From: Nanobdellati archaeon
GTDB lineage: Archaea; Nanobdellota; Nanobdellia; Woesearchaeales; JAADFO01
Length of the DNA: 55,942 nucleotides
Direction: 5' to 3'
Assembly (NCBI GenBank): GCA_013152815.1
Contig: JAADFO010000044.1
Coordinates: 1-55,942 of the forward strand
Shown one piece after another: positions 18,870 through 51,915 of the stretch (positions are counted from its first letter, which is position 1; each line of letters begins with the position of its first letter). Under the pieces are notes generated by a model. The model ran no database searches, was not told the DNA's origin, and saw only the letters and a list, made by a program, of their open reading frames with translations. The translations under genes and the position numbers were made by a program.

Positions 18870-18967
18870 GCTGTTCCTCTGCGGTGTCTGTGTGATGCAG
18901 GTGCTGGCACAATATTTATGTCTTTCCACTGTCCTGTTCAACAACGCTCCTTTGATGCCGACTTAGC

Positions 18968-19108
18968 GGGCTAAGTCAAGTTAAGTGGGACTGCGTCATC
19001 CGTCATCAGGATCAGCGTTTGCAGATGCAAACCTGATCGACGATGACAAGGCGGGGGTCCCTGCGGGGTGCCTTGTAGCAGTCTCATCATCACAAACTTG
19101 ACTTAGTC
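18968..19108. mobile_element. MITE-like element, family A, copy 1 (~141 bp)
   Basis: TIR GGCTAAGTCAAGTT...AACTTGACTTAGTC; flanking direct repeat GACTTAGC (18960-18967, 19109-19116); near-identical to 22559-22703. Confidence 0.9.
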
Positions 19109-19116
19109 GACTTAGC

Positions 19117-19130
19117 AAAAGCTTTTTAAA
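19117..19130 (+). promoter_or_regulatory. BRE-TATA of rpl15e
   Basis: AAAAGCTTTTTAAA. Confidence 0.7.
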
Positions 19131-19216
19131 TGACTCCTGGTCACCGGGATTCGACGGAGATGTGGGCCTGGCTTGCCTGAATCCGTCCTGGAAGAAGAAC
19201 AACGGAGGCTAACACC

Positions 19217-19774
19217 ATGGGACTCTATAAGTATCAGAGAAAATTGTACCAGCAGCCCAAGAAGAATCTTGGGGAGATCTGGAAAGAACGTCTTGTCCGC
19301 TGGAGACAGGAGCCTGTTTCTGTGAAGATCGATCGTCCTACCCGTCTTGACCGGGCTCGTTCGCTGGGCTACAAGGCCAAGCAGGGCATCATCATGGTCC
19401 GTCAGCGGGTCATACGCGGAGGTCGGATGCGGCCCAAGGCATCCATGGGAAGACGACGGCCGAAAACGTCCCGTCGCACCCTCATCCTGGATAAGAGCTA
19501 CCAGCAGGTCGCTGAGGAGCGCGCCCAGAGGAACTACAAGAACCTGAACGTCCTCAATTCCTACGAGATAATGAAGGATGGAAGATATTACTGGTTTGAG
19601 GTCATCCTTTTCGACCCTTCCCATCCGTCGATCAAGAAGGATAAGCAGCTGGGCAGGCTCTGCACATCCAAGCACACCGGACGGGTCTTTCGAGGTCTTA
19701 CTGCTTCAGGCCGAAGGAGTCGCGGTCTCCTGAAGAAAGGGAAAGGTGCTGAAAAGATCAGGAAACATCATTGA
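19217..19774 (+). CDS. rpl15e: 50S ribosomal protein eL15
   Basis: RPTRLDRARSLGYKAKQG, AEERA, VLNSY, FEVIL, GRVFRGLTASG. Confidence 0.97.
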   Translation: MGLYKYQRKLYQQPKKNLGEIWKERLVRWRQEPVSVKIDRPTRLDRARSLGYKAKQGIIMVRQRVIRGGRMRPKASMGRRRPKTSRRTLILDKSYQQVAEERAQRNYKNLNVLNSYEIMKDGRYYWFEVILFDPSHPSIKKDKQLGRLCTSKHTGRVFRGLTASGRRSRGLLKKGKGAEKIRKHH

Positions 19775-19804
19775 TTTTTTTAATCTTTTTTAATCTTTTT
19801 TTTA
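19775..19804 (+). terminator. Oligo-T terminator tract
   Basis: T runs directly after the rpl15e stop. Confidence 0.6.
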
Positions 19805-19911
19805 CTGTTCTGAAAAGAGCAGCCTGCAGAGCTCTCTGAGGATTCTTCAGGGCCTGCATTGAAACGCGAACATTCGTAAATTTTATAAAGGACCGTCTTC
19901 CGTATAGCATC

Positions 19912-20070
19912 ATGACAAAGTTCGTCTGTAAAGGCTGCGGGTACAAGGTCGACAAGGAGAAGGCTCCTGCACGATGCTCCTATTGCGGCAAGGACGGTTC
20001 ACTGATCCGGGAGAAATCTGCTCAGGACATCCTCGATGAGGTGTCGAAGAACTCTGCAGACTTCGACTGA
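19912..20070 (+). CDS. Small zinc-ribbon/rubredoxin-like protein, 52 aa (not in ORF track)
   Basis: MTKFVCKGCGYKVDKEKAPARCSYCGKDGSLIREKSAQDILDEVSKNSADFD*; TTTTATAAA about 25 bp upstream. Confidence 0.82.
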   Translation: MTKFVCKGCGYKVDKEKAPARCSYCGKDGSLIREKSAQDILDEVSKNSADFD

Positions 20071-20087
20071 CGGCGTGTTCTCTTCTC

Positions 20088-22463
20088 TTATGCTCTTTCT
20101 GTCTTTCTCTGTCTTTTCTTCTGGAGAAAGAAGGATAGCCTTTCCTGGTCTGCGTTGAAGATCTCTTCGATATCGATGCCGAGAAGGGTGAGCACATCGT
20201 CGAGCTGTGGCAGGATCTGGTTGTAGAGATAATACTGCAGGTCGATGTCGTACTTCTCCCGCGGAAGCCGGACACGGCTGCTGATCCTGTCTTTGCCCGG
20301 GCTGATGAAGAACCGTATCTCCATCCCTTTCTTGACCGCGTGGCCCTGCTGCTTCATCCGGAGGGCTGCAGCCACATGGGGCGGCGTCGATTCATATTGG
20401 TCGAGCTCTTTCTGGAGACGGGCATGGAAGACGAGGTCCTCTTCAGGGATCCTGCCATCGGTCAGGTCCTCCAGATGCTTGAGCAACGCGATCCTGATGG
20501 CATTGGGGGATTCTCCCCTGACTGCCCGTTCCACGATGTCCTTGATGACCCGGTCAGAATAGTTCGCGAAGAGGGTGTTGGGCAGGCCGAAGCGCTTCGC
20601 GACCAGTCGGCCGTCCTTGAGGAATGCGTATTTCCTCCTCTTCCTGCCGCGGTAGTCTTCCGTCGCTATGAAGATGACCCGGTCGTAGGGACCGGTAAGG
20701 TGCAGGTCGAGCCGATGGCCCAGGAGCCGGTTGATGGTCTCTTCGGTCTCCTCCCGGGAGCGTTCAGGTTCCTGGTCTGAGAAGAAAAGATGTTGCTGGT
20801 CAGCCATGATGAGCTCGATGCCGCTCTGAAGAGCCCCTCCTGACATGCGTCGTAGCTCTCTCCTGATGATGTCCTTGAGGACCTCTGCGCAGACCAGGCT
20901 CGCATAGCGTTTCTTCTTCGCTGAGAGATACGTGAGGAAGCGGTCGGTGAGGAGGTTGAGGGCCTTGAACCTGGCCTCGAGCTTGGTCAGCTCCTTCTCT
21001 TCTGTCTTGATGCTCCGTATGCGTTCCATACGCTGGATCAGGTCGCCATAGATGCGTGGCATGATTCCTTTCTTCTGCCTGCAGAACCAGATGGGATAGG
21101 GGATGCTCGGGACGTCGATCTTGGTCGCGCTGTCACGGCAGCAGGAGCACCAGAGGGTCTCTTTGGAGATGTTGTGCTCATCCATGATGCGACGGATGAG
21201 CGGGGCAAGGTCGGTGAGATACACCGTCTGTTTCAGGCAGCTCTTGTTGAGTTCATAGAGCGGCCGGTCCTCTATGCCTGCGATGGTCTGGGATGCCTGG
21301 CGGGTGGGGACGATCCAGGCCGGATCGGTCTCTCTCATGATGTGATGGTCCAGGAATCTCGACCTGGGGACCCGGGTCAGCTCATGGATGAAGAGTCCGG
21401 TTATCTTGCTCAGTTGCCGAAGTATGGGCAGGATGAGCGGTGTCAATGTCGCCAGTTGGTCTATGGGCTCCGGTGTCTGCTTGTCACCAAGGGTCATGGC
21501 ATAGAGCTCTTTCAAGGAGAATGATGGTTCCCGGAAGACCTTGTTCATGACGTTCATGAGATCGACATGGGGTATGCCGGTGATGTCTGCCGAGAGCTCC
21601 CGGTATTTTCCCAGCCTGAGCGGTGAATGGTCGAGTCCCATGTCGATGGTCTGCCCTGTCTCCTGGGCGATGCTCTCGAGCAGGGGAAACCCCTCGAAAT
21701 CCGTCCTCCAGCCGACCAGAAGGTCAGGCTTCCAGGAGGTGATGGTCTCCTTTATCCTGTCGACGACCATGGCCTGGTCGTCGCAGAGTATCTGTTCTGT
21801 GTAGGACCCTGTTTCTGCTTCGGTGGATATGAGCACCCTATCCTTGCTCCGCCGTAGCCATGCTCGTCTGATGCCTGACGGTCCATTGTCCTGCGCACCA
21901 GGCACCGAACCGGCGACGGGTTCGATGATAAGATAGGCGATCTCCAGCTGCTCCTGTTCATCCGCTTCATAGGTCCGGACGGTCTTGGCCTGGATGACCG
22001 ATACCCTGCTCCTGAAATTGATGTACTCTCCCTTGATGAGGAGCGGGCTGTAGGGCCTTAGCCGGTGGGTAAGCGCATAGTGCTGTTCAAAATTGATATC
22101 TCCCTCGAAGACGTTCTCGACCAGGGGGATGTTCTGCAGATGCCTGGCCATGGCATAGGTCCCCCAGGGGTCTTCAAAGATCACCTTCAGAAGCCTCATT
22201 GGCTTTCCAAAGAAGGATTTCTCGACTTCCTGCACGGTGACGACCCGGTTGGTGCGCTCATGCTCGGTGAGCGTCACCTCTCCAAGGTATTGTGCAGCCT
22301 TCCCCATATCCCCTTTCGGAAGCACATAACAGAAAGGCCGGAAGCTCCTGTCCACAGCACAGATGACCCTTCCTTCCTTGTTCTTTCCGTAGATGAGGAT
22401 GATGGGGCCTTCCCGCGTCTGCTTGAAACTGATATAACGGGGATAGAGAATGATCTCGACCAT
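20088..22463 (-). CDS. Family B DNA polymerase homolog, full length, catalytic motifs degenerate (start revised)
   Basis: PolB N-terminus (FRPFCYV, FEGDINF), HNISKETL, thumb (PPHVAAALRM, YYLYNQILP) and PIP-like QERLSFFL; lacks intact DxE, DFxSLYP, KxxxNSxYG and YGDTDS. Confidence 0.88.
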   Translation of the reverse strand: MVEIILYPRYISFKQTREGPIILIYGKNKEGRVICAVDRSFRPFCYVLPKGDMGKAAQYLGEVTLTEHERTNRVVTVQEVEKSFFGKPMRLLKVIFEDPWGTYAMARHLQNIPLVENVFEGDINFEQHYALTHRLRPYSPLLIKGEYINFRSRVSVIQAKTVRTYEADEQEQLEIAYLIIEPVAGSVPGAQDNGPSGIRRAWLRRSKDRVLISTEAETGSYTEQILCDDQAMVVDRIKETITSWKPDLLVGWRTDFEGFPLLESIAQETGQTIDMGLDHSPLRLGKYRELSADITGIPHVDLMNVMNKVFREPSFSLKELYAMTLGDKQTPEPIDQLATLTPLILPILRQLSKITGLFIHELTRVPRSRFLDHHIMRETDPAWIVPTRQASQTIAGIEDRPLYELNKSCLKQTVYLTDLAPLIRRIMDEHNISKETLWCSCCRDSATKIDVPSIPYPIWFCRQKKGIMPRIYGDLIQRMERIRSIKTEEKELTKLEARFKALNLLTDRFLTYLSAKKKRYASLVCAEVLKDIIRRELRRMSGGALQSGIELIMADQQHLFFSDQEPERSREETEETINRLLGHRLDLHLTGPYDRVIFIATEDYRGRKRRKYAFLKDGRLVAKRFGLPNTLFANYSDRVIKDIVERAVRGESPNAIRIALLKHLEDLTDGRIPEEDLVFHARLQKELDQYESTPPHVAAALRMKQQGHAVKKGMEIRFFISPGKDRISSRVRLPREKYDIDLQYYLYNQILPQLDDVLTLLGIDIEEIFNADQERLSFFLQKKRQRKTERA

Positions 22464-22558
22464 GCAGGAGATAATGGTTCTGGCGTATATAAAGATGTCG
22501 GGAATCCTTCTAAAATCCTGCCCGGGATGGTCTCCTGAGAGCATAGATTGAGAGCATA

Positions 22559-22703
22559 GGGCTAAGTCAAGTTAAGTGGGACTGCGTCATCCGTCATCAG
22601 GATCAGCGTTTGCAGATGAAAACCTGATCGACGATGACAAGGCGGGGGTCGCCCCCTGCGGGGTGCCTTGTAGCAGTCCCACCACCACAAACTTGACTTA
22701 GCC
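22559..22703. mobile_element. MITE-like element, family A, copy 2 (~145 bp)
   Basis: Perfect TIR GGCTAAGTCAAGTT/AACTTGACTTAGCC; flanking direct repeat AGAGCATA(G) at 22551 and 22704. Confidence 0.92.
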
Positions 22704-22747
22704 AGAGCATAGAAAGTTTTAAAAATGCCGTGGCGCCACAAAGGGGA

Positions 22748-23689
22748 ATGGCAAAGGTAATGCTCTTGGACGGGCAGGGAAAGGCACGGGAGACTGCCTA
22801 TGCCGACTACAAAAAGCTCCCCAAGAACAGTCTCTCCTGGACCCATCTGGTCTCCTCTGAGGAGAAAGCCGTCGATTTTGTGCTTGACGAGCTTGGGCAG
22901 GACGAAGAGTTTGAAGAAGACATCCTGGAAGACCAGCGTCCCCGTCTCAGTGCAGAGCATTCCTATGATATCATCGTCCTGACCGTGCCCATAAAGAAGA
23001 TAGCCAAGGCCCATGAGAGCGAGGATGCGCTGCTCCAGCTCTCTTTCATCGCTTTTCAGCATCGTCTCATCACCGTCGCTGACATGAAAGCTCCCATCAT
23101 CGACCAGATATTCACCCAACTTGGCAAGAAGGGGCTGGAGACGCCGTCGGTCTCTTCCCTGTTCAATTTCATCGTCAGCGGTGTCGTGGAGAACAGCATC
23201 GACGCCATGGAGCTTGTCGAGAAACGGATCGACCAGATACAATCGACCATCATCCAGGGAAAGACCCTCCAGGAGATGCTGACCCTCTCTGAACAGATCA
23301 AGGAGACCCTCTACTACAGCACCAAGCTTCTGCGGGCCGATCTCGAGGTCTTCTGGGAGATCCTCGCGGGCAAAGCTATTTCAATCAAGGCAGAGCTGTT
23401 CTATGAGCACATCGAAGATCGTGTCCTCTATCTCATCGACCTGTCTGAGGGTCTTCGTGAGAGCCTCCAGAACATCCTCAACCTGTACCTGGCTGCCCTG
23501 TCGAACCGTATGAACCAACATATCTACCGGCTTACCAACATAGGGGCGTTCTTTCTTATCCCGACGATGATCGCGAGCATCTGGGGCATGAACGTGGAGC
23601 TTCCTTTCCATAACTTCTGGTCCATCCTGTTGGTCTCTTTCGGAGTTTCCTTCATCTTTGCCATTTATCTCTGGCTCATCAAGCGATGA
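22748..23689 (+). CDS. corA: CorA-family Mg2+/Co2+ transporter (start 22748 or 22730)
   Basis: QRPR, C-terminal TM pair with the WGMN signature. Confidence 0.9.
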   Translation: MAKVMLLDGQGKARETAYADYKKLPKNSLSWTHLVSSEEKAVDFVLDELGQDEEFEEDILEDQRPRLSAEHSYDIIVLTVPIKKIAKAHESEDALLQLSFIAFQHRLITVADMKAPIIDQIFTQLGKKGLETPSVSSLFNFIVSGVVENSIDAMELVEKRIDQIQSTIIQGKTLQEMLTLSEQIKETLYYSTKLLRADLEVFWEILAGKAISIKAELFYEHIEDRVLYLIDLSEGLRESLQNILNLYLAALSNRMNQHIYRLTNIGAFFLIPTMIASIWGMNVELPFHNFWSILLVSFGVSFIFAIYLWLIKR

Positions 23690-23730
23690 AGCGATGAATA
23701 AGGCACGACCTTTTATGGAGACGACATCCT

Positions 23731-24207
23731 TTGTATCGGACACTCAATCCCTGGGAAGAAGAACTGGACAAGTATTCGTCTGGAAGCGGCAAGGAGAGCG
23801 AGCTCTATCATGCGGACGACGATGCTTCCCCGGGTGATTCCTACCATGCCCGTCCTGACCATCTTCCTGGCGACCCTCTTTCCGAGTCCTATCACCATCA
23901 GGACAGGGAAGAGGAGAAGGATGACAAGAGCGACAAGAGTGACAAGAGTGAGGATGACATCTTTGCCGAAGAGGGAGCGGCAGGAAACTACCAGGCTGAC
24001 GACAAAGCGGTGAAAGAAGACCGGTCCTCAGACAACACAGGCAAGGAACTCACCCTGGACCAGATCAAAGAGACCCTGGAGCGTCCTGCTCCTCTCGTTC
24101 CTCAGGAAGATACACAGTCACAGTCCCTCAAGGATGTGGAATCGCTGCTCGATGACCTTTCACGAAAGCAGAATCGTCGTGAACTCATCAATCTCGACAA
24201 GAGATGA
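23731..24207 (+). CDS. Acidic, probably disordered hypothetical protein
   Basis: D/E/S-rich ORF filling the gap; TTG start with GGAG upstream. Confidence 0.65.
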   Translation: MYRTLNPWEEELDKYSSGSGKESELYHADDDASPGDSYHARPDHLPGDPLSESYHHQDREEEKDDKSDKSDKSEDDIFAEEGAAGNYQADDKAVKEDRSSDNTGKELTLDQIKETLERPAPLVPQEDTQSQSLKDVESLLDDLSRKQNRRELINLDKR

Positions 24208-24263
24208 TGGCTGATGGACGCTCTCTGTTCGCTGCTGCCTGATGACCGATAGTTATAAAAAGG

Positions 24264-25070
24264 ATGCCGGTGAGAATGAACAGGGGGATTAGCGTGAAAG
24301 GACAAAAAAGACCAGCACTCGTCATCTTCGGCAGCCAGAGCGATGCATCAATCTATGAGCGTGTCATCGCACGTCTCCATGCGGAAGCGGTCTCTTCGGT
24401 GTTCCGGATATGCAGCGCCCATCGGTCTCCTGGCTACCTTTCTGAGATTCTCAAGAACGAGGAATACGGTCTGGTCATCGCCGGAGCAGGACTTGCAGCA
24501 CATCTTCCTGGTGTGGTCGCCTCGCAGACCATCCGGCCTGTCATCGGTGTTCCTGTCTCTTCATCGCTGGGCGGCCTTGATGCGCTGCTTTCCATCATCC
24601 AGATGCCTCCGGGCATCCCTGTCCTCTCTGTCGGCATCGATGCGGCAGAGGAGGCAGCACGTCACGCAGCCCTGATGTCCAGGTCTTACGATGAGATATG
24701 CATCGTCACCAATGGCCTGCTCATGGAGCGTTTCGAGAAGGCCCGCGTGTGGCTTCAGGAACGTAACATCCCTCATGTGTTCTCTGATGAGCCGTTGAAG
24801 GAGAAAGTCAACGTGCTCGCCTTTTCGCTTTCCCGGCCCGCCTCTTTTCCTGGTGAACTCTTCATCATCCGCGTTCCTGTGCTTTCTGAGGGGACGCCTG
24901 AGGATGCCCTGCTCCTTGCCCGGACGACATCCGAAGGGCTTTTCGTGGGTCTCAACAGGGTCGAGAACGCAGTCATCGCAGCTGCCCAGATACTCAGCAT
25001 GGACGGTTCTTTCGACGACCAGCACCATCAGTATCGGAAGGACATGGAAAAGGCCATACGACTGCTCTGA
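24264..25070 (+). CDS. purE: AIR carboxylase / N5-CAIR mutase with a second, degenerate PurE-like domain (start uncertain)
   Basis: GSQSD, SAHRSP, AGAGLAAHLPG, PVIGVP, DALLSIIQMPPGIPV. Confidence 0.92.
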   Translation: MPVRMNRGISVKGQKRPALVIFGSQSDASIYERVIARLHAEAVSSVFRICSAHRSPGYLSEILKNEEYGLVIAGAGLAAHLPGVVASQTIRPVIGVPVSSSLGGLDALLSIIQMPPGIPVLSVGIDAAEEAARHAALMSRSYDEICIVTNGLLMERFEKARVWLQERNIPHVFSDEPLKEKVNVLAFSLSRPASFPGELFIIRVPVLSEGTPEDALLLARTTSEGLFVGLNRVENAVIAAAQILSMDGSFDDQHHQYRKDMEKAIRLL

Positions 25071-25137
25071 GCGCCGGGACATTGGCCTGCCGATTATGAT
25101 GAGCGGTCTCGTGCAGGAAAAAGACGGGTACGAAAAA

Positions 25138-26154
25138 ATGAAGGGAACAGACGAGCATCATGTTTCTCCATCTTCTGGCCAGGATGAGAAACAATCGGGC
25201 CTGGATGAGAAACAAGTCTTGGAGAACATCGATAATACGCTGAAGGATACCGATTTTCCCATAGGCAAGCAGTATAAGGGAAAGGTGCGTGACAATTACC
25301 TGCTGGGAGACCGGCGTCTGATCGTGGCGACCGACCGGCTGTCTGCCTTCGACAGGATCATCACTGCCCTTCCTTTCAAGGGGCAGATGCTGAGCCAGAT
25401 GTCAAACTATTGGTTCGGCAGGACCAGGCACATCATCAGGAACCATCTCCTCGACATCCCTGACCCCAACGTTGTTGTCGTCCATGAATGCAAGCCACTC
25501 CCGGTCGAGATGGTGGTGAGAGGGTATCTGACCGGTTCGCTCTGGAGAGCCTATGCTGAAGGACAGCGCTTCCTCTACGGCATGAAATTCAATGCCGATC
25601 TGCGGAAGGACCAGGCCTTTGACCATCCGCTGATAACTCCCACCACCAAGGCTGCCTATGGCACCCATGACACTCCCATCTCCAGGGAGAAGATCATCTC
25701 TGAAGGTCTTGTCGAGAAGAACGTCTATGAGCAGATGGAGGAGGTCTCCCTCAAGCTTTTCTCCTTCGCGACCAGGGAGCTGGAGAAGAACGGTCTCCTT
25801 CTGGTGGACACCAAATATGAGTTCGGCATCCATGAGGGACAGCTCATGCTGATGGACGAGATCCATACTTCCGACTCTTCCCGTTTCTGGGAAGAAGAGT
25901 TCTATGAGCGACGTTTCGAGGCAGGCCAGGACCAGGAAGCGCTGGACAAGGAATATGTGCGTCAATGGCTGCTCTCCCAGGGCTTCAAGGGCGATGGTGA
26001 GCCGCCGACCCTCCCGACAGAGGTCATCGTCAAGGCGGTGCTGAAATACCACACTGCCCTCGAACGCATCACCGGAGAGCCTCTTGCGGTCCGGCAGGGA
26101 GACGTGCTCGAACGGATAACAACGAATCTGAAGAACAAGGGCTATCTCCCATGA
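25138..26154 (+). CDS. purC: SAICAR synthetase (start revised; 25096 also possible)
   Basis: GKVRD, TDRLSAFD, EMVVRGYLTGS, TPTTKA, DTKYEFG, DEIHTSDSSRFW, LDKEYVR. Confidence 0.95.
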   Translation: MKGTDEHHVSPSSGQDEKQSGLDEKQVLENIDNTLKDTDFPIGKQYKGKVRDNYLLGDRRLIVATDRLSAFDRIITALPFKGQMLSQMSNYWFGRTRHIIRNHLLDIPDPNVVVVHECKPLPVEMVVRGYLTGSLWRAYAEGQRFLYGMKFNADLRKDQAFDHPLITPTTKAAYGTHDTPISREKIISEGLVEKNVYEQMEEVSLKLFSFATRELEKNGLLLVDTKYEFGIHEGQLMLMDEIHTSDSSRFWEEEFYERRFEAGQDQEALDKEYVRQWLLSQGFKGDGEPPTLPTEVIVKAVLKYHTALERITGEPLAVRQGDVLERITTNLKNKGYLP

Positions 26155-26774: not shown

Positions 26775-26777
26775 ACG

Positions 26778-28175: not shown

Positions 28176-28192
28176 AAGTCAAGTTAGGAAGC

Positions 28193-29332: not shown

Positions 29333-29412
29333 TTCTTTCTTCCTCGTCGCTATTTAAACCTTTTCCCAATTCATCTGCAGGACGTCCTCTCTGGAGGCTA
29401 CCCCTGACCAAT

Positions 29413-29636
29413 GGCTGTTATGAGACCCTGCAAGAACATGCCAAATGCATGACCTACTCCATCGACGATGCTCAGCAACAAGTTGCTGGCACCAAAGGGA
29501 ACCGTATACGTTGCATACGAACCTCGTCGATTACGTCTGGCCAGCCATCATTGTCCTCCTTTCAGTCGGAAATGCTGACATTGATGGCGCAGACGATCAT
29601 GCATTTGGCAAAAAAGCAGAGGATTTCATAATGGCC
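29413..29636. mobile_element. MITE-like element, family C, copy 1 (~224 bp)
   Basis: Imperfect TIR GGCTGTTATGAGACC.../...GGATTTCATAATGGCC with subterminal IR TGCCAAATGCATGA; flanking direct repeat CTGACCAA (29404-29411, 29637-29644); homologous (inverted) to 48806-49030. Confidence 0.85.
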
Positions 29637-29644
29637 CTGACCAA

Positions 29645-29660
29645 GGAAATCTTTTTATAC
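29645..29660 (+). promoter_or_regulatory. BRE-TATA of the 6-phosphogluconolactonase gene (leaderless spacing)
   Basis: GGAAATCTTTTTATAC ending about 22 bp before ATG 29682. Confidence 0.7.
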
Positions 29661-29681
29661 TCTGCCAGAGAATGTGGGATC

Positions 29682-30380: not shown

Positions 30381-30451
30381 AAAACACGTCCATTCAAAGA
30401 GCGGGCTGTGAGCTGTCTTCTGTTTCTGTGGATGTTCTTTGTGGATGAGAA

Positions 30452-31693: not shown

Positions 31694-31698
31694 TGGTC

Positions 31699-33615: not shown

Positions 33616-33721
33616 GGGGTCCGATGAAAGGAATCGGCTTTATAAAGATTGTGGTGGCCTGTATCCGAAGAAATCGTCTTTTTCCGAGGAGGATCCGCTG
33701 CTTTTCTGCTCTGAGAAGGGC

Positions 33722-34651: not shown

Positions 34652-34664
34652 GAACAGGATCCTC

Positions 34665-36429: not shown

Positions 36430-36542
36430 GGCCTATGAACAGACGTCACCATTTAAAAAGATTTATCCCTACTTGCTGGTAAAGGAACAGGGTAACCTGA
36501 TGCAGAAGAGATGAACAAAAGGAAAGAAAAAAGAAATCAGCC

Positions 36543-37016
36543 TCACTCGACATCGGTGAGGAGGGGTCCCTGTCATCGAATGGACAAAATTTGACTGGAG
36601 GTCTGTATACACCAGATCCATGCTCCCTTTGAGCCTTGCGCCTTGTTGTGCTGTCATGCCTGAACAGGATAATGTGATTGTCGCTTCTGATCCTGCAAAT
36701 AGTGTTACGGGAGTAAATGACGCATTATTATTGTTACAATCTGCCAGACCATTGTCTGAAGTGAAATTCAGGTTGGTTATCTTTATATCATTGCCCAATC
36801 CATTGCTCAGTTTCAGTTTTAATTGCGCCGGACTTGCGGTGAGCGAGTGATCTGCACACACGATGCCCTGCGAGAAGACGCATTTCCTCGGAAGGAACTG
36901 CTGCGGGTTGAGGACTCCGATGCTAAAGCTCCGATGACGATGAGGACGACGAGAATTGCCCAGCCATAGGTCATCAAGAATTCCATGGCGGCCTGTCCTT
37001 TCTTCTGATTGACCAT
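36543..37016 (-). pseudogene. Major-pilin-type gene with two frameshifts
   Basis: KKG|QAAMEFLMTYGWAILVVLIVIGALA shifts frame near 36922 to IGVLNPQQFLPRKC..., then again at the C run near 36565 to GTLLTDVE*; GAGGT SD upstream. Confidence 0.82.
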
Positions 37017-37143
37017 TGTGTGACCTCCTCTTTTTCATGTACACATATATTAGGATGAACGGGTTTATGGATTCTTATGGACTCATATACATGAATGATT
37101 ATCAATTATGAATGCTGTGCTATTTAAATCTTTCGCTTGCTTC

Positions 37144-37232
37144 AGCTCTGGAGAAAGTATGGTCAGCATCCTTTGCGAGGCCTTACCCTGCTCAGGCGCG
37201 GAAGAGTTCCGGGGCTGGAACGACTGAAGCAG
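37144..37232. mobile_element. MITE-like element, family B, truncated copy
   Basis: GGTCAGCATCCTTTGCGAGGCCTTACCCTGCTCAGG... nearly identical to the reverse complement of about 48690-48796, with the central GC hairpin deleted. Confidence 0.85.
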
Positions 37233-37294
37233 TGTCCTTGCATGTTCCACTTGTCGTAAAAACAATTATAAAGTGCATCCATCTACATCGCTGC

Positions 37295-38766: not shown

Positions 38767-38822
38767 GCCACTCTCCAGGACGAGCAAACCTTTAAATATC
38801 ACCGATGCGAAAGAGGCTACAG

Positions 38823-41519: not shown

Positions 41520-41603
41520 TGGTACGCTCTCCGAGATGTGGAAAGCAGGGGAAAGGTCCGGCCCGATGGTCTGATGTTTGAATGTTTTGGAACCGTTTTG
41601 ACG

Positions 41604-43064: not shown

Positions 43065-43109
43065 GCTCATACCTGACCCCATACTCGACGCTCTAGCGCA
43101 AGAGGCACC

Positions 43110-43922: not shown

Positions 43923-44950
43923 GACTCAACGTCGTCCTGCTGGAGGAGTTCGGGAAGGCCTTCGTCCCTAAACGGTTCAGGCCTTATATGAGAAAATATT
44001 TCCTGAAGGCGGGGATCAACAAGGTACCTTACAACCTCTTCGGGAGCCTCTTCTATCTGACCATCTTCCTCACCGGCTTCATCTATGTCAGCTTCATCTA
44101 TCCTCTGCTCATCAAGAGCCAGGTCAATGTCATCATCTTTCTCCTGACGACCTTTTTCCTCTGGGCAGGCATCCAGCTCTCCCTCGCGGTGGTCTTTATG
44201 CTGCTGATCTACAGCTATCTGGACCAGCGTGTCTACCGGAGGACCAAGAACCTGGAGACGGTGCTCCAGGACTTTCTCCGCTATGTCTCAGAGAACCTCA
44301 AAGGCGGCATGAGTTTCGAACGTGCGCTATGGGATGCCATCCGTCCGAAATTCGGCGTCCTCGCAAGCGAGATACGCCTCGCTGCGAAGCGGGTCATGAC
44401 CGGGCAGGACGTGGACAAGGCGCTCACCGAGTTCACCGAGAAATATCAGAGTCCCATGCTCAAGAGGACGTTCAATCTCATCGTGGAAGGGATGAAAGGC
44501 GGTGATGAGATAGCAGAGCTGATCGACAGGATAGAGAGCAACCTTCGGCAGACCAAGGAGCTCAAGGACGAGATCCAGGCGACGAACTCGACCTATGTCA
44601 TCTTCCTTTCCATCATAGCGACGGTCATCGCTCCTGGTCTTTTCGGCCTCTCCTACAATCTCCTGATCATCCTCAACAGCCTTTCCGGGAAGCTCGGCGC
44701 GGCAGGAAGCTCGGCCGCCCTGCCCCTGTCGATAAATTCATTGAGCGTCAGTCCGGAAAATTTCGCTACATTCACTGTCTACGCCATCCTCGTCACTTCC
44801 TTATTCTCCTCATTGATCATCTCCATCATCCGCTACGGCAACATGAGGCAGGGCATCAAATATGTCCCTTTCTACATGGGCATCTCGGTCCTGGTCTATT
44901 TCATCGTCCGTTACGGCCTGCAATCGGTCTTCGGCGGCATCATCACCTGA
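43919..44950 (+). CDS. TadC / T2SS-F-like pilus platform membrane protein
   Basis: LQDFLRYVSENLKGGMSFERAL, FGVLASEI; multiple TM segments. Confidence 0.9.
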   Translation: MRLNVVLLEEFGKAFVPKRFRPYMRKYFLKAGINKVPYNLFGSLFYLTIFLTGFIYVSFIYPLLIKSQVNVIIFLLTTFFLWAGIQLSLAVVFMLLIYSYLDQRVYRRTKNLETVLQDFLRYVSENLKGGMSFERALWDAIRPKFGVLASEIRLAAKRVMTGQDVDKALTEFTEKYQSPMLKRTFNLIVEGMKGGDEIAELIDRIESNLRQTKELKDEIQATNSTYVIFLSIIATVIAPGLFGLSYNLLIILNSLSGKLGAAGSSAALPLSINSLSVSPENFATFTVYAILVTSLFSSLIISIIRYGNMRQGIKYVPFYMGISVLVYFIVRYGLQSVFGGIIT

Positions 44951-45017
44951 GCTGTTCTCCTGCCTTCTTCTTCATGATGCGATACATTTATAAACGGGTC
45001 ATTGTTCCTGAGGTTCC

Positions 45018-45395
45018 ATGGCTGTAGCACAAGGAAGGCCGCGGCGGACTGCGACCGGCGGACGCTATAAGGACTATCGGAAGAAGAGGGACCATGAGAC
45101 TGGAAATGTCCCCGCCCTGACCAAATTAGGTCCTGTCCGGAAGAAGAATGTGCGCATGCGTGGCGGCCATGAAAAGAAAATCCTTCTGAGTGTAGAGGCA
45201 CTCAACCTCTTTGATCCAAAGACCAAGAAGGCCAGCAGGGCCATCATCAAGAACATCGTCGAGAACCCTGCCAATCGGCATTTCGTCCGAAGAAACATCA
45301 TCACAAAGGGAACGATTGTCGAGACAGACAAGGGCAAGGCCAAGATAACGAACAGACCTGGTCAGGAAGGGACGGTCAACGGTGTGCTCATTTAA
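45018..45395 (+). CDS. rps8e: 30S ribosomal protein eS8
   Basis: TGGR, RMRGG, NPANRHFVRRNIITKG, RPGQEGTVNGVL. Confidence 0.97.
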   Translation: MAVAQGRPRRTATGGRYKDYRKKRDHETGNVPALTKLGPVRKKNVRMRGGHEKKILLSVEALNLFDPKTKKASRAIIKNIVENPANRHFVRRNIITKGTIVETDKGKAKITNRPGQEGTVNGVLI

Positions 45396-45476
45396 GGATT
45401 CTCTTTTAAATGAAGATGCTCTTCAACCCATTTCTTTATAAATCATCCAGATTAGTGTCACCTTGTAGTAGTGTAA

Positions 45477-46583
45477 ATGAGAAAACTATTTAAACGCTGT
45501 GTTCATTGTTTATTCATGGTCCGGAAAAACCCTGAAGACCTGGATGATTTTTCCAAAGGTAATATTTTTCTTTTCAAGAGACCTCCCCGGAGAAAGGAGA
45601 AAGATATCGTTCCTGACAAGGAATACTTCGAGAAGCATGCAGATCTGTTTGACAAACTGATGGGAGCCGGTTCTGGATCACCATCCGCAGATGCTCCTGC
45701 AGGTTCACCGGACGGGTCTGTGGGCGGGTTGACCATCATCACGCCAAGGATGCGGGGGAGATTCGTGGAGCAGAAGGAGCATGCTCTCGATTATCTTTCT
45801 GATAACGTCGTCGCGAAACAGATCCATCGTGAGCATGACATGCTCCTGGTATCCACAGGCAAAGACGTGGACTATGCTCTCATCCCCTTTGTCCATCAGA
45901 GCGAGCTGGACATCATGGTGCCGAAGGATGCGACCCTGTTCGATGCCAGAGGACGACACATCAAAGCGTTGGGTTCTGCCCTTGAGGAGCGGATGGCCGA
46001 CTACAACAGCAGAGGGCTTTCTCCTGTCTTCCTCTTCCGGAGAGCGAAACTTGTCAGCGGGAGATATGACGGTCCCTTCGGAAGGAAAAAACGGGCATCG
46101 GTCCTCGACCCTGAACCGTCCAACAACAAGATCATCCTTACTGACCTGGAACTGGCTGTGGAGGAACTCATCCGCAGGGCAAGCCATAATGCAGGAAGGA
46201 ATGTCCTCCGCAATTTTCAGGAATACCGTCCTTCATTGACGTATCTCATCGATGATAAGAGGGGAAAGCTGCAGGTCTTCTACACGAGATCAGCGCTTTC
46301 CGGAAGAGACTATGCCTTTGATGACTGCCCTGTCTGCGCAAGACCGGAAGGGATGGACCATGGCGTCTGCAAGAAGGAGAAACCCTATCAGGAGATGGCC
46401 TGGAAACGGGATGAGGTGCGGGCAAGCAGGCTGTTCACCATCGTCAAAGAGAGGAAGCAGCGCAGGGAAGGACACGCTTCAGGAACCTATGGGGGGATCC
46501 GCCTGGTCCGCTCTGTACTCCAGGATAAACAGGAATCAGGAAGGACAGGGGATATCACCTATACGCTCGGTCTTGTCAGGTAA
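45477..46583 (+). CDS. Hypothetical protein (start 45477 or the downstream MVRKNP)
   Basis: Long ORF with AT-rich 5' region and a CPVC...HGVC motif. Confidence 0.75.
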   Translation: MRKLFKRCVHCLFMVRKNPEDLDDFSKGNIFLFKRPPRRKEKDIVPDKEYFEKHADLFDKLMGAGSGSPSADAPAGSPDGSVGGLTIITPRMRGRFVEQKEHALDYLSDNVVAKQIHREHDMLLVSTGKDVDYALIPFVHQSELDIMVPKDATLFDARGRHIKALGSALEERMADYNSRGLSPVFLFRRAKLVSGRYDGPFGRKKRASVLDPEPSNNKIILTDLELAVEELIRRASHNAGRNVLRNFQEYRPSLTYLIDDKRGKLQVFYTRSALSGRDYAFDDCPVCARPEGMDHGVCKKEKPYQEMAWKRDEVRASRLFTIVKERKQRREGHASGTYGGIRLVRSVLQDKQESGRTGDITYTLGLVR

Positions 46584-46652
46584 GGGGTCGGGCAAGGTGG
46601 TTGGTCCTTGCCTCTCTGTCTCTCTTTCTGCTTGGAAAGGCCAGGATGCCCC

Positions 46653-47723
46653 TCATGAGAATTCCCTGAGGACGACATGGCCGATGCGATTGTCTGCAAT
46701 CTTCAGATAGCCGGTCTTCCTGTTGAACCGGTCGATGACGCCAAGGGGAAGCGTGGTGACGAACTTTATCTTTGTCGCATCATGCCTCTGTTGGTTGATC
46801 TCGTGCAGGGGGACAGCATCCAATCTTCTGGTCTCCTTGTCGATGATGAACTGTCCTGGAACGTGGAGGTGAGAGCTGATGACCAGAATGTTCTTTTTGG
46901 AGGCCATAAGGATCTCGAGGAACGGCTCGACATTGCGCGCGAACATCCCCGATGAGAAGCTGGAATAGGCCAGCCTGCGGAAGATCTTTCCTTTCTGCAG
47001 CACCATCGATGCATGAGGGTCTCTGCTGAAGAACGGCGGGCAATGGAGGAAGAGGACGATCTGTCGCTCCCTGCTGTCCTGGAGCTCTTTCCGGAGATAG
47101 GCAAGTTGCTTATCCTGAAGGCCGTAGGACGGCGTCGAAAGGACATGCCGGATAATGGGCCAGTATTTAGGGTTGAAGAAGATTTCCGGCCGGGAGAAGG
47201 CATCTGGTCCTGTGCTGAGAAACAGGAGCCTTCTTCTGTCGAGCGTGACAGCATAGTCCTTCTGGAGGAATTGGCTCGACACCTTGTCATCCTTCTTGAG
47301 AAAAAGGTTTATGGAACGCAATTCATCGAACCATCGGAAACGATGGAACCCGAACCTTTTCCTGAAGCGCAGGCGTGTCGCTCTGCTGATGTTCACATGA
47401 TGGAGTCCGTAGAAGGAGAAGTTATAGGCAAATGACCTGAAATCATGGTTTCCCACATTGATATACGTCAAGCCATCGAATCGCGAGAGGATATCGTCTG
47501 CATAGTCCAGGTTCTTCTTGGCAGAGGGCCCATAGTCCGCGTAATGATAGTCGACGAGGTCACCGTTGATGATCAGGGCATCATCCTCCGTGAGGATGCG
47601 CATCATCTTCTGGAGCTGACCGTTGGGGTTGAGGAACCCAATCTCCTTCGGCAGGACCTTCGCTATCTTGTTCCATATCCTGGCCACATGCACATCACTG
47701 ATGACGACAAGGTTTTTCGGCAT
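46653..47723 (-). CDS. Calcineurin-like metallophosphoesterase
   Basis: SDVH, NGDLVD, GNHD, LHCP, SHLH motifs in order. Confidence 0.88.
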   Translation of the reverse strand: MPKNLVVISDVHVARIWNKIAKVLPKEIGFLNPNGQLQKMMRILTEDDALIINGDLVDYHYADYGPSAKKNLDYADDILSRFDGLTYINVGNHDFRSFAYNFSFYGLHHVNISRATRLRFRKRFGFHRFRWFDELRSINLFLKKDDKVSSQFLQKDYAVTLDRRRLLFLSTGPDAFSRPEIFFNPKYWPIIRHVLSTPSYGLQDKQLAYLRKELQDSRERQIVLFLHCPPFFSRDPHASMVLQKGKIFRRLAYSSFSSGMFARNVEPFLEILMASKKNILVISSHLHVPGQFIIDKETRRLDAVPLHEINQQRHDATKIKFVTTLPLGVIDRFNRKTGYLKIADNRIGHVVLREFS

Positions 47724-47890
47724 TCGTCCACCACGGGATCATTCTTCGTGTTCAGGTACAGCAGGATCTCCTACAGTCATCCTCTGCTTAAAAAATCTAC
47801 CTTTCAGAGGTCCACGAAAGACAGGATATCGTCAGAAAGTTTCCCGAAGGATGACAATGCATATGGTACATGCATAGGTGGGGGTTCTCA

Positions 47891-48583
47891 TCAGCTATGC
47901 TCGACCTTATGGTCCCTCTCGGGCGGAGCGGGTTTATGTTCGAGAGAATCCAATGCTTCCTGGGACGGGGTCACAAGACCGACACCTCTCTTGTTCTTGT
48001 CGATATTGATGACCTTGATCTCGAAGTTCCGGAGAGGTGCGATCTTTGCCATCCTGCCTCGGAGGAGTTTCTGTACCTTGTTGAAGATGATGTCCTTGAA
48101 GACGTTCTCCAGCGTCAGCTTAGAGAAGATCGCCGAGATGAGGTCGGTGGATGACTTCCGAAGTGCAGACTGGGTGGATTTGTTGACCTTGAAACGGGTG
48201 ATGAGAATGAACTTCACACGGACCGTTATGCCGTCGTTGGTCCTGCAGAGGAAGCTATGGTCGACCCGGTCCCTGTTCCGTCTCACGAGCCGCTTGAAAT
48301 GTGCAGGGATGATCTCGTACTTGAAGACCTGGGTCTCTGCTGTGGTACCGACAATCTTGTCTATCTTGAAGGTGATGTTGACATGTTGGCCTCTTGGGTC
48401 GTTGGTGAGGTTCATGAGGTTGACCTTGACGGCCCGACCGGGAAGGTTGCTCGCCTCGAAGGCAGAGGTCTCGCCGATGGATACGGCATTGAAGCCTTTC
48501 GGCGATATGATGGAGAACCAGAGCTTCTTCTTCGCTCTGGAGCTTTTCTTGCCTTTGGATGTCTTCTTAGGATTTGGAGCCAT
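47891..48583 (-). CDS. rps3ae: 30S ribosomal protein eS1 (S3Ae) (start revised from 48943)
   Basis: KKLWFSIISPKGF, GRAVKVNLMNLTND, KRLVRR, KIAPLRNFEI. Confidence 0.93.
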   Translation of the reverse strand: MAPNPKKTSKGKKSSRAKKKLWFSIISPKGFNAVSIGETSAFEASNLPGRAVKVNLMNLTNDPRGQHVNITFKIDKIVGTTAETQVFKYEIIPAHFKRLVRRNRDRVDHSFLCRTNDGITVRVKFILITRFKVNKSTQSALRKSSTDLISAIFSKLTLENVFKDIIFNKVQKLLRGRMAKIAPLRNFEIKVINIDKNKRGVGLVTPSQEALDSLEHKPAPPERDHKVEHS

Positions 48584-48604
48584 ATTCTCGATAGTGGCAG
48601 TGAA

Positions 48605-48621
48605 CCCTTTAAAAAGATTTC
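48605..48621 (-). promoter_or_regulatory. BRE-TATA of rps3ae
   Basis: Minus strand GAAATCTTTTTAAAGGG about 24 bp before ATG 48583. Confidence 0.7.
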
Positions 48622-48630
48622 CATTTGCCC

Positions 48631-48796
48631 GGCTTTGTAGAAAGTTACGCTTACGCGTGGTCAGCATCAGGCTCGGCCACCGCGACGACTCCTGCTTCTG
48701 CCGTTCCAGCCCCGCGGGGGCCCACCCCCGGAACTCTTCCGCTCCTGAGCAGGGTAAGGCCTCGCAAAGGATGCTGACCTCACTTTCTACAAAACC
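48631..48796. mobile_element. MITE-like element, family B, intact copy (166 bp)
   Basis: 15-bp TIR GG(C/T)TTTGTAGAAAGT, inner IR GGTCAGCATC; flanking direct repeat CATTTGCCC (48622-48630, 48797-48805). Confidence 0.92.
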
Positions 48797-48805
48797 CATT
48801 TGCCC

Positions 48806-49030
48806 GGCTATCATGGAACCCTCTGCTTTTTTGCCAGATGCATGACCGTCTGTGCCATCACGGTAAGCATTTCCGAATGAAAGGAGGACGAAGGAGGAAG
48901 ATGATGGCGTGGGCCAGGCGGCATCGACGGGGTTCCCATGCATCTATGCATCGTAGAGGGTCCTCCTCGATGGAGCAGGGCAGGCATCTGGCATCTCTCT
49001 GCAGGAGTTCATACTAGCTGCATACTAGCC
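48806..49030. mobile_element. MITE-like element, family C, diverged copy
   Basis: Aligns by eye to the reverse complement of 29413-29636 (CCTCTGCTTTTTTGCCA.ATGCATGA.CGTCTG.GCCATCA...AGCATTTCCGA.TGAAAGGAGGAC); no clear TSD. Confidence 0.85.
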
Positions 49031-49107
49031 GCAGATACCCTTTAAAGCGCCCTGATTCTCTTTCCCTGAAGTAACCTTTATAAATGGTTCTTGCTTGCTG
49101 AAGGACC

Positions 49108-50463
49108 ATGGTGCTCGACAAGCTCTCGGATTCACTGAAGAACACGCTGAAGAAGATAGCAGGCTCGATGTTCGTCGATGAGAGACTCGTCAATGAGCTC
49201 GTCAAAGACATCCAACGGGCATTGCTCCAGGCAGATGTCAATGTCCAGCTCGTCTTCTCGCTGACGAAGAAGATAAAGGAAAGGGCATTGAAAGAGGATG
49301 CTCCGGCAGGCCTCAGCAAACGTGAATTTCTCATCAACATCGTCTATGAAGAGCTTGTCGCCTTCCTCGGCGGAGAACCCGCCAGGATACAGCCTGACAG
49401 GAAGCCCTATATCATCATGCTCGTCGGTCTTTTCGGTTCAGGGAAGACGACCACCTCGGGAAAACTGGCGAAGTTCTTCACCAAGCGGGGGAAGAAGGTG
49501 GCCCTTCTGGGCCTTGACGTCCATCGGCCTGCAGCCATGGACCAGATCAAACAGGTAGGGGATGCGCTTGGCGTTCCTGTCTTCATCGACAAGACAGGGA
49601 AGGATCCCTCGGCAATATACGACCATCACAAAGAGACGCTCAAAGGCTTTGATGTGGTCATCGTCGATACGGCAGGGAGAGATGCGCTCTCGGAGGACCT
49701 GATAACCGAGATACGCGACCTCACCGAGCTCATCAGGCCGCACCAGAGGTTCCTCGTCATCTCTGCCGACATCGGACAGGCTGCACAGACGCAGGCAGAA
49801 GAATTCCACCGGAGCTGCCAGATAACAGGGGTCATCGCCACCAAGATGGACGGGACGGCCAAGGCAGGAGGCGCACTGACCGCCTGCGCTGCAACGGACA
49901 CCCATATCATCTTCCTGGGAACAGGAGAGAAACCAGACGATCTCGAGGAATTCAACCCCAAGGGGTTTGTCTCACGGTTGCTCGGGATGGGAGACCTGGA
50001 GCTTCTTCTGGAAAAAGCGAAGGATGCCATGGAAGGGCAGGATACGGAATTATTGTCCAAAAAACTCATGAAGGGCGAATTCTCCCTGAGCGACCTCTAT
50101 GAACAGATGGCAGCCATGAGAAAGATGGGGCCGCTCAACAAGATCATGGAGATGGTCCCTGGTTTCGGGCAGATAAAACTCCCCAAGGAGGCGCTTCGTG
50201 TCCAGGAAGGCAAGCTGGACACCTGGAAGATCCTCATGGACTCCATGACCGTCGAGGAGAAAGAACATCCTGACATCATCACGGTCGACCGCATCGACCG
50301 CATCGCCAAAGGATCCGGCAAGAAAGCGTCTGATATCCGGGAGCTTCTCAAACAGTATAGGCAGAGCAAGAAGATGATAAAGATGCTCAAACCCGGGAAG
50401 GCGAAGAACATGGAAGGGATGCTCAGGAAGATGAAAGGGTTCTCCGGCATGAAACTCAAATAG
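49108..50463 (+). CDS. srp54: Signal recognition particle protein SRP54
   Basis: ALLQADVN, GLFGSGKTT, DVHRPAA, DTAGR, TKMDGTAKAGGA, Met-rich M domain. Confidence 0.97.
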   Translation: MVLDKLSDSLKNTLKKIAGSMFVDERLVNELVKDIQRALLQADVNVQLVFSLTKKIKERALKEDAPAGLSKREFLINIVYEELVAFLGGEPARIQPDRKPYIIMLVGLFGSGKTTTSGKLAKFFTKRGKKVALLGLDVHRPAAMDQIKQVGDALGVPVFIDKTGKDPSAIYDHHKETLKGFDVVIVDTAGRDALSEDLITEIRDLTELIRPHQRFLVISADIGQAAQTQAEEFHRSCQITGVIATKMDGTAKAGGALTACAATDTHIIFLGTGEKPDDLEEFNPKGFVSRLLGMGDLELLLEKAKDAMEGQDTELLSKKLMKGEFSLSDLYEQMAAMRKMGPLNKIMEMVPGFGQIKLPKEALRVQEGKLDTWKILMDSMTVEEKEHPDIITVDRIDRIAKGSGKKASDIRELLKQYRQSKKMIKMLKPGKAKNMEGMLRKMKGFSGMKLK

Positions 50464-50567
50464 CGAATGTTTAATAGCGAATGTTTAAAACCCTTCTTTC
50501 CCCTCAATCTCTCTCAGCTCCACCGTCCAGGGGGAGGGGGTAAGATGCTTGCAGAAGGTGACCGACC

Positions 50568-51668
50568 ATGTCCCTCGATTCCGTACAAAGATACCAACTG
50601 AAGAGCTTCGTCAGAAGCCTGAAAGATTATCGTGGCAGACATACCGAGCTGGTGTCGGTCTATATCCCTGCCGGCTATGAGCTGAACAAGATCATCAACC
50701 ACCTGGCCCAGGAACAGGGGACCGCATCCAACATCAAGTCCAGCCAGACAAGGAAGAATGTGCAGGATGCCCTCGAACGCATGATCCAGCATCTCAAGCT
50801 CTACACGAAAACACCGGAGAATGGACTTGCCGTCTTTTCGGGGAACGTCGCCGAGCGGGAAGGCCAGAGTGATGTAGAAGTCTGGAGCATCGAACCGCCG
50901 GTGCCTCTCAAGACCCGTCTCTACCGCTGCGATAAGCAATTCCAGCTCGAACTCCTTTCGGACATGATGGAGATCAAGGAAGTCTATGGTCTCGTGGTCA
51001 TGGACAGGAGAGACGCCCACATAGCCTTGCTCAAGGGAAAGGCCATCATTCCGCTGCTGAGCGCCTCCTCAAATGTCCCGGGGAAGACCCGGGCAGGAGG
51101 CCAGTCGGCAGCCAGATATATGCGGCTGCGGGAAGATGCGGCGAAGGACTTCTACAAGAAGATAGGCGAGATGATGAAAGATCAATACCTTCATCTGGAA
51201 TCGCTCAAAGGCATCATCGTCGGCGGACCAGGTCCCACCAAATACGATTTTGTCGAAGGAGGGTACATCACCGCAGATGTCAAGAACAAGATCATCGCCA
51301 TAAAAGACCTGTCGTACACAGGCGAATTCGGCCTCCAGGAGCTCCTCGACAAGTCCCAGGACGTGCTCGCCAAGGAAGAGGTGGCCGAAGAGAAGAAGAT
51401 CCTCCAGAGATTCCTCTCTGTGCTCGCGACGAAACCAGACCTCATCGCCTATGGCGACGATGCCACCATGAAAGCGTTGACCATGGGAGCTGTCGATATC
51501 CTGCTTCTCAGTGAGAGCCTGGAAGACCCTGTCATCCGCCGCTATGAAGAAGAGGCCGAGAAGGTGGGCACAGACATCCGTATCATCTCGGTGGAGACAC
51601 GGGAAGGCACACAGCTCAGGGAGCTCGGCAAGGTCGGAGCCCTGCTGCGCTATCCTGTCAGGACCTGA
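50568..51668 (+). CDS. prf1: Peptide chain release factor aRF1
   Basis: TASNIKS, YRCD, GGQSAAR. Confidence 0.97.
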   Translation: MSLDSVQRYQLKSFVRSLKDYRGRHTELVSVYIPAGYELNKIINHLAQEQGTASNIKSSQTRKNVQDALERMIQHLKLYTKTPENGLAVFSGNVAEREGQSDVEVWSIEPPVPLKTRLYRCDKQFQLELLSDMMEIKEVYGLVVMDRRDAHIALLKGKAIIPLLSASSNVPGKTRAGGQSAARYMRLREDAAKDFYKKIGEMMKDQYLHLESLKGIIVGGPGPTKYDFVEGGYITADVKNKIIAIKDLSYTGEFGLQELLDKSQDVLAKEEVAEEKKILQRFLSVLATKPDLIAYGDDATMKALTMGAVDILLLSESLEDPVIRRYEEEAEKVGTDIRIISVETREGTQLRELGKVGALLRYPVRT

Positions 51669-51779
51669 CGAAGTACCTGACGATAGCGTCTTTGTTTCAT
51701 GATGCAACCCGCAACTCCCTTCTTTGGAGCTTCATGCTTCCTATCGCGTTCCAACGGAGCATAAACCCGTTGCACCGTT

Positions 51780-51872
51780 GCAGGGCCGGAACGGTAGAAG
51801 CAGCGTCATCGTGGTCATTGCCGTGGCCAGGCCTGATGACGGCCACGCGTCAGCGTGACTTTTCACAGGACC
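51780..51872. mobile_element. MITE-like element, family B, degenerate partial copy
   Basis: GGAACGGTAGAAGCAG...GTGGCCAGGCCTGATG..GCCACGCGTCAGCGTGACTTTTCACAGGACC aligns to the reverse complement of about 48631-48715. Confidence 0.75.
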
Positions 51873-51915
51873 AGGGAACCTAACATTTTTAAATGGCCCG
51901 GACTTCTGGCCGTCC

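Follow-up and report, generated by a model that had tools for sequence, protein, structure and literature searches.

Transposable elements of the miniature inverted-repeat kind (MITEs) in a woesearchaeal archaeon nearly always lie at a base-exact distance upstream of the core promoter, which consists of the TFB recognition element (BRE) and the TATA box. We describe this arrangement for a window of 55,942 nucleotides, the whole of contig JAADFO010000044.1 (C44) in GenBank assembly GCA_013152815.1 (G000; 1.49 Mb, 76 contigs, 90.8% complete), for the rest of that assembly, and for related genomes. A DPANN, Woesearchaeales-like placement of the organism is suggested by its small genome and by Woesearchaeota labels on the transposases closely related to those of its elements. 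In G000, a promoter was found 14 to 17 bp from one element end at 37 of 42 MITE loci. The pattern is real, and as far as literature searches reach it is new in both its host domain and its transposase family. It exceeds what null models of placement and selection predict, and insertion is very probably aimed at a fixed spot upstream of BRE-TATA.

The 42 loci, identified with family profiles, belong to three families: 5 to A, 20 to B, and 17 to C (22 C matches collapsed to 17 loci). Five element ends were set by hand, and a few degenerate end-only matches were left out of the count. All three families are MITEs, being short, multicopy, bounded by terminal inverted repeats, and devoid of a transposase, with two-ended copies of 55 to 296 bp. 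Aligned copies are 94 to 99% identical in A (five copies), 80 to 94% in B (8 of 20), and 75 to 98% in C (8 of 17). At the 27 two-ended loci with a promoter, the target duplication is 9 bp long (with at most two mismatches) in 15 cases and 8 bp in 5, and is unrecognizable in 7. Orientation to the promoter is not fixed, with ratios of 3:2 in A, 10:7 in B (one further B locus is unassigned), and 7:7 in C.

Within the window, whose genes are archaeal, a preliminary description had placed six element sites 14 to 17 bp from a TATA box, and we recovered all six. Measured to position 0 of our BRE-TATA matrix, the TATA reference point for all gaps given here, the distances are 15 (A1), 15 (A2), 16 (C1), 16 (the B copy at 37144), 16 (B1), and 14 bp (the B copy beside infB). 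The geometry is the same as that described before, from a reference point less fixed than matrix position 0. Other details needed revision. The target duplications are mostly 9 bp (8 bp in five genome copies), the B copies at 37144 and 51872 are partial or degenerate, with no duplication found, and a C element that shares the target of B1 had been overlooked. The labels rpl15e, rps3ae, infB, pgl, and corA stood, the last on a match below the cut-off, and the gene called a pilin is unconfirmed, having no match. In window coordinates, the features are as follows.

18960..18968 (+): left copy of the A1 target duplication; right copy at 19109-19117, 8/9 match.
18969..19108: MITE A1, 140 bp, with 14-bp terminal inverted repeats, strongly self-complementary (folding z -7.4).
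19116..19131 (+): BRE and TATA box of rpl15e (19217-19774); position 0 at 19124, 17.0 bits.
22560..22703: MITE A2, 144 bp; its 9-bp duplication (22551-22559 and 22704-22712) is perfect.
22711..22726 (+): BRE and TATA box of a corA-like gene; position 0 at 22719, 14.5 bits; ATG 29 bp downstream.
29413..29636: MITE C1, 224 bp; duplication at 29404-29412 and 29637-29645, 8/9 match.
29645..29660 (+): BRE and TATA box of a 6-phosphogluconolactonase-family gene; position 0 at 29653, 15.2 bits; ATG 29 bp downstream.
37144..37241: partial B element with one terminal repeat intact; second end and duplication not found.
37120..37135 (-): BRE and TATA box facing a gene near 36469-37044, which had no match in annotation searches; position 0 at 37127, 16.7 bits.
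48631..48796: MITE B1, 166 bp; perfect 9-bp duplication at 48622-48630 and 48797-48805.
48806..~49030: C-family element, starting directly after the distal duplication of B1; its own distal duplication is not recognizable.
48607..48622 (-): BRE and TATA box of rps3ae (47891-48583); position 0 at 48614, 15.4 bits; ATG 31 bp downstream.
51778..51872: partial B element, degenerate; duplication not found.
51879..51894 (+): BRE and TATA box of infB (51916-53670); position 0 at 51887, 14.0 bits; ATG 29 bp downstream.

To locate promoters across the assembly, we called 1347 genes with our own script and trained the matrix on 925 upstream regions, masking the elements and 80 bp of flank. The trained matrix recovers AA at -5/-4 together with the TATA core, and its matches show a sharp mode 28 to 32 bp before the start codon. 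Counting as a promoter any match of at least 7 bits at 14 to 17 bp from an element end gave the 37 loci; one of them (C28:34936) was included because its end, among the five set by hand, had been shifted outward by 9 bp to the far side of a tandemly repeated terminus, and the tally is otherwise 36 of 42. Offsets are narrow within each family: 15 in all five A loci; 16 (14 loci), 15 (3), and 14 (1) in B; and 16 (7), 15 (6), and 17 (1) in C. Five loci miss. Two are B copies, namely a fragment of 53 bp that lies between convergent genes and a copy of which the far end alone was recognized. The other three are C copies: the one stacked behind B1 and two with scores of 4.9 and 6.2, the latter also between convergent genes. 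Promoter matches at offsets of 8 to 40 from any end number 44, with 41 at 14 to 17, 36 at 15 and 16, 1 at 8 to 13, and 2 at 18 to 40.

The AA of the BRE is present at 31 of 36 targeted sites versus 758 of 3061 other intergenic TATA-like cores, and an ATG or GTG follows at 28 to 33 bp in 26 of 36 versus 949 of 3061. The flank distal to the promoter has no AT-rich mirror motif. Promoter scores are also higher at targeted sites (median of 14.0 versus 12.9, P = 0.009), a difference to which we give no evidential weight because the score threshold biases the comparison. None of 13 copies of other intergenic repeats in G000, whose ends are approximate, has a promoter at 14 to 17 bp. The earlier claim that position is conserved beside BRE-TATA, with no consensus in the target, is supported genome-wide by the 37 loci.

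Chance and tolerance of insertion account poorly for these counts. Only 2.0 to 2.1% of intergenic positions have such a site, with or without protection of promoters and terminators, and four placement nulls give an expectation of 0.83 to 0.87 of 42 loci. The preliminary description had named a broad distribution, indistinguishable from random intergenic placement, and many copies between convergent genes as outcomes that would speak against targeting; the distribution is not broad (37 loci versus about 0.85 expected), and only two of the five misses lie between convergent genes. It had also raised purifying selection as the alternative. We modeled selection alone locus by locus, with insertion permitted anywhere from the BRE up to the neighboring gene or promoter. 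There were 8 to 245 tolerated positions per two-ended locus (more than 40 in 22 of 28), and 27 of 28 loci matched versus 2.65 expected (P about 6e-31). Some gene starts were placed too late by our caller, which inflates the free room, though by too little to close the gap between 27 and 2.65.

The duplications locate the fixed point of insertion more precisely. In B and C, 9-bp duplications go with an offset of 16 (11 of 11) and 8-bp duplications with an offset of 15 (5 of 5), and in A, 9-bp duplications go with 15 (4 of 4). The duplicated target thus ends 6 bp (A) or 7 bp (B and C) before the TATA box, for 8- and 9-bp duplications alike. Because the offset tracks duplication length, the cut near the promoter is constant and the far cut is variable, and the constancy of the near cut suggests that the insertion complex is anchored from the promoter side. 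The junctions are original, as the intact duplications show. At rps3ae, B1 lies between the promoter and the abutting C element, and with B1 removed the C end falls 16 bp from the same TATA box; two families therefore used the same base. Elements are stacked at one site in relatives too (loci L253 and L265).

The same placement recurs in related genomes. Among full-length IS5-type insertion sequences (ISs) from 16 genomes of the order, with several end types, 21 of 25 have a promoter at 14 to 17 bp versus 1.58 expected; the 25 are the loci with resolved ends and duplications (the other 44 of 69 were not counted), and kin among them are not independent. In these 21, the promoter lies to the right in 14, to the left in 6, and on both sides in 1. 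Among 80 loci kept of 534, close or DPANN-labeled elements with both ends resolved are on register in 6 of 7 cases. B-end loci of the order are on register at 19 of 29. Matches to A-type ends in relatives are on register at 26 of 46, with 23 at exactly 15; at least 7 of the 46 lie within reading frames and seem fortuitous.

Candidate transposases for B and C were found in relatives. Of 401 genomes of the order, 92 contain the B end, and a reversed control was near zero. Locus L027 is an IS of 943 bp that has perfect B ends, is flanked by a 9-bp duplication, and contains a frame of 295 codons matching PF01609. Its protein scores 107 bits against NF033579, below the cut-off of 140; among named elements, ISHma13 and ISH19 come closest, at about 26% identity. 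NF033579 matches 113 of 401 genomes, a tally that includes the unpublished G315 and G134, whose loci stay outside the locus analysis. In many homologs the reading frame runs through a B-type end at the C terminus. C-type ends bound four IS5 elements of about 1020 bp among the 69 loci, three of them at offset 16, and the C partners L152, L154, and L164 exceed the NF033579 cut-off. Because the B- and C-type transposases are 29% identical and share one supported 36-row tree branch, we consider the two families relatives. Matching ends, duplication length, and register together suggest that the B and C ends belong with IS5-family elements. A structure model of the transposase (288 residues, pLDDT 88.7) returned only general DDE matches in a fold search, namely Tn5 transposase and integrases. 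Complex prediction for the transposase and its host's own TFB core scored 0.00, which is evidence neither way.

Within G000, no transposase was detected with PF00872, PF13610, PF12762, NF033579, or NF033572 or by tblastn with the L027 protein; PF06782 also gave no match, in a search that had no positive control. For family A, whose ends occur in 45 of 401 genomes, no transposase partner was found by patterns in those 401 genomes, by DNA search of 301 genomes of the class, with IS6, ISKra4, or ISH6 profiles (five genomes each), or in viral contigs. A metagenome scan returned one match, judged not to be a MITE. A core of eight bases (positions 7 to 14) of the A end also occurs in one ISLre2-family end among the accessible rows of Table S1 of PMC3942029, which we treat as a lead only. 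The earlier view of three unrelated families does not hold for B and C, which have IS5-family ends and related transposases; A, with its different register of 6 bp, may be unrelated to them. A transposase with matching ends, which the preliminary description had called for, exists for B and C in relatives, and none was detected in G000 or for A.

Two other transposase families were considered and set aside. IS6 was suspected as the B partner from the ends and from L014 and was dropped once L027 was found; none of the IS6-like genes examined is bounded by A, B, or C ends, a MITE end of 51 bp comes after a truncated gene in L014, and IS6 elements are expected to give an 8-bp duplication versus the mostly 9 bp observed. 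A Mutator-like enzyme for B and C was rejected because the partners are IS5-type and G000 has no PF00872 or NF033572 match. Separately, relatives carry IS6-like DDE genes with N-terminal zinc-binding motifs and no recognizable terminal repeats (L011:1321-2463, L013:1090-1998, and L268). Many NF033579-like genes of 350 to 430 codons also lack repeats, and both groups are possibly domesticated or use other ends.

From these results we propose the following mechanism. The MITEs would be nonautonomous and moved in trans by DDE transposases, of the IS5 family (NF033579-like) for B and C and another enzyme for A. The complex of transposase and element ends would be positioned from the promoter side, most likely docked on TBP-TFB at BRE-TATA. 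In either orientation, it would make the promoter-near cut at a fixed 7 bp (6 bp for A) upstream of the TATA box and the far cut 8 to 9 bp further out. The gene and its core promoter would stay intact, making the site a safe harbor in a compact genome.

The elements, their duplications, the register, its one-sidedness, and the failure of the null models are observed; what sets the register is a matter of weighing explanations. Several findings count against the proposed mechanism. Off-register cases make up 5 of 42 loci in G000, 4 of 25 full-length ISs, and 10 of 29 B-end loci in the order. G000 lacks a detected transposase, and the match between MITEs and ISs is weak, covering the terminal 16 to 25 bp, with no match between the bodies; a closer parent IS for B and C may be unsampled. 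In Thaumarchaeota, elements with B-like ends are on register at only 9 of 63 loci by the full matrix, which may not suit those hosts, and at 20 of 63 by the TATA core, with match totals of 10 versus 0.73 expected (full matrix) and 31 versus 3.0 (core). The register there is the same and much looser, either because the matrix fits poorly or because selection sharpens the pattern in compact genomes. All sites, moreover, are survivors of selection, and, with no sequencing runs listed to search, neither empty alleles nor fresh insertions were observed. As a rival explanation, the argument from survival holds that insertion is random in a compact genome and that purifying selection or later spacer trimming does the rest. 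We consider that very improbable. It is strongly disfavored by the excess over the locus-wise null despite ample free room, by duplications that preserve the original junctions, and by the off-register placement of the other intergenic repeats. Offsets of 8 to 13 would, in addition, rebuild the BRE through duplication just as well, yet they hold 1 of the 44 matches.

If insertion is aimed, the guide is, by a modest preference, the TBP-TFB complex. TFB binds the BRE, and because the target directly adjoins that element, docking on TBP-TFB is our leading model. Alternatively, a transposase might itself recognize the sequence or shape of BRE-TATA on a single flank of its target, independently of any host factor. 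Such readout, which we regard as a weaker though serious candidate, predicts the same fixed register, and the 288-residue model has no obvious extra targeting domain. Thaumarchaeal elements are A/T-rich immediately outside the duplication at both ends, as an intrinsic DNA preference would have it, and IS903, of the same IS5 family, is known for a preference in the flanks of its target. Direct readout is harder to reconcile with a motif that is one-sided even though the two ends are near-identical and both orientations occur, with sites that hold a full BRE and TATA box rather than an AT patch, and with a single window common to family A and to transposases less than 30% identical with different ends. 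Different transposases would also converge on that narrow window, shifted by 1 bp between families, if they simply took the closest accessible or bent DNA where the TBP-TFB footprint ends and made no specific protein contact. This seems unlikely to us: a footprint edge sets a minimum distance and not a single base, and only 2 of the 44 matches lie at offsets of 18 to 40. As for TBP-TFB docking in its general form, that archaeal DNA transposases (including those of a widespread IS5 clade and perhaps of another superfamily in the case of A) dock on TFB-TBP and integrate base-exactly upstream of the BRE is a proposition we hold to be evenly balanced.

Additional observations concern the elements and their surroundings. 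The A2 target 9-mer has a third copy at 22538-22546, 4 bp beyond the duplication, perhaps left behind when an element inserted at this site earlier and was lost; an A copy elsewhere (C73:11973) has comparable partial repeats at its flanks. The A1 duplication (18960-18968 and 19109-19117) is very similar to the final bases of the terminal repeat of family A and may be what remains of an A end that occupied this site before. The family A elements in the window (18969-19108 and 22560-22703) each form one long stable hairpin (folding z about -7.5), which may serve as a terminator or insulator upstream of the promoter. In one Nitrososphaeraceae assembly, IS5 elements with B-like ends have recently expanded to more than 30 full-length, near-identical copies (L078-L127). 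G000 has a fourth intergenic repeat family (C15:5127-5276, C43:16688-16878, C33:578-720, C51:32127-32370, and others) that forms hairpins, has no terminal repeats, and lies off the TATA register; we take it to resemble IS200/IS605-type ends or repetitive extragenic palindromic (REP) elements. A fifth, small family occurs at C58:3371-3486, C71:11884-12005, C72:4626-4811, and C15:1061-1227. The window also includes a 120-codon gene with a lysine-rich repeated tail (17379-17741), perhaps encoding a histone-H1-like DNA-binding protein.

Among known systems, the B and C partners resemble IS5-family elements such as ISHma13 and ISH19 in having a DDE_Tnp_1 transposase, a length of about 0.9 to 1.05 kb, short terminal repeats that begin with GG, and 8- to 9-bp duplications; they differ in their low identity to named members, given above. 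The IS5 subgroups that apply in this comparison are, we assume, ISH1 and IS903. No report of promoter-register insertion for the IS5 family was found in the literature searched. In yeast, Ty3 and Ty1 at RNA polymerase III genes likewise have their position set relative to a TBP-containing initiation complex and not by target sequence. They are long terminal repeat (LTR) retrotransposons with demonstrated protein contacts, and insertion of Ty3 is at the start site, on the downstream side of the factor. By contrast, the elements described here are DNA transposons that lie upstream of the BRE, and any factor contact is putative. Targeting of Ty3 by TFIIIB is mentioned in the accessible part of PMC3942029.

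The closest published case, in the available portions of PMC3942029, is that of the bacterial TnGBS, ISLre2, and ISKra4 elements (p-MULT 3/4), found 15 to 17 bp upstream of sigma-A -35 boxes, for which contact with RNA polymerase was proposed by analogy with Ty3 and is unproven. The likeness extends to the fixed distance upstream of a core promoter, duplications of 8 to 9 bp, the logic of a safe harbor, and the use of both orientations where the two ends are near-identical. Unlike ISLre2 and TnGBS (p-MULT 3), the archaeal elements have no fixed orientation to the promoter. They also differ in addressing an archaeal BRE-TATA rather than a bacterial -35 box, and in relying, for B and C, on IS5-family enzymes of about 290 to 320 residues versus Mutator-like enzymes of about 360 to 480 residues in the table rows available there. 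The same portions speculate that archaeal ISH6 may favor promoters via an AT-rich duplicated motif; the duplication described here, in contrast, has no consensus. As MITEs, families A to C agree with the prokaryotic elements treated in the accessible text of a review (PMC10969869), being short, noncoding, furnished with terminal repeats and target duplications, and presumably moved in trans. "TATA" is absent from that text, which describes no promoter-register insertion; nor is such a register described in the available parts of PMC7986276, PMC6807381, or PMC9208149, the last of which notes that ISs often lie within 100 bp of genes. The literature searched, a body that leaves most subscription papers outside its reach, yielded no report of insertion in a fixed register at archaeal TATA boxes.

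These findings would extend promoter-aimed transposition to the Archaea and to the IS5 family. A small enzyme of about 290 residues and a two-factor promoter system offer a setting in which to reconstitute how such elements find promoters, and the insertions themselves are markers of promoter position in uncultured archaea. Placement in a safe harbor would account for the dozens of mobile elements that compact DPANN-type genomes tolerate. If docking on TFB-TBP is true, the system would be a prokaryotic counterpart of TFIIIB-guided Ty3 integration, using the ancestor of the eukaryotic TBP/TFIIB machinery.

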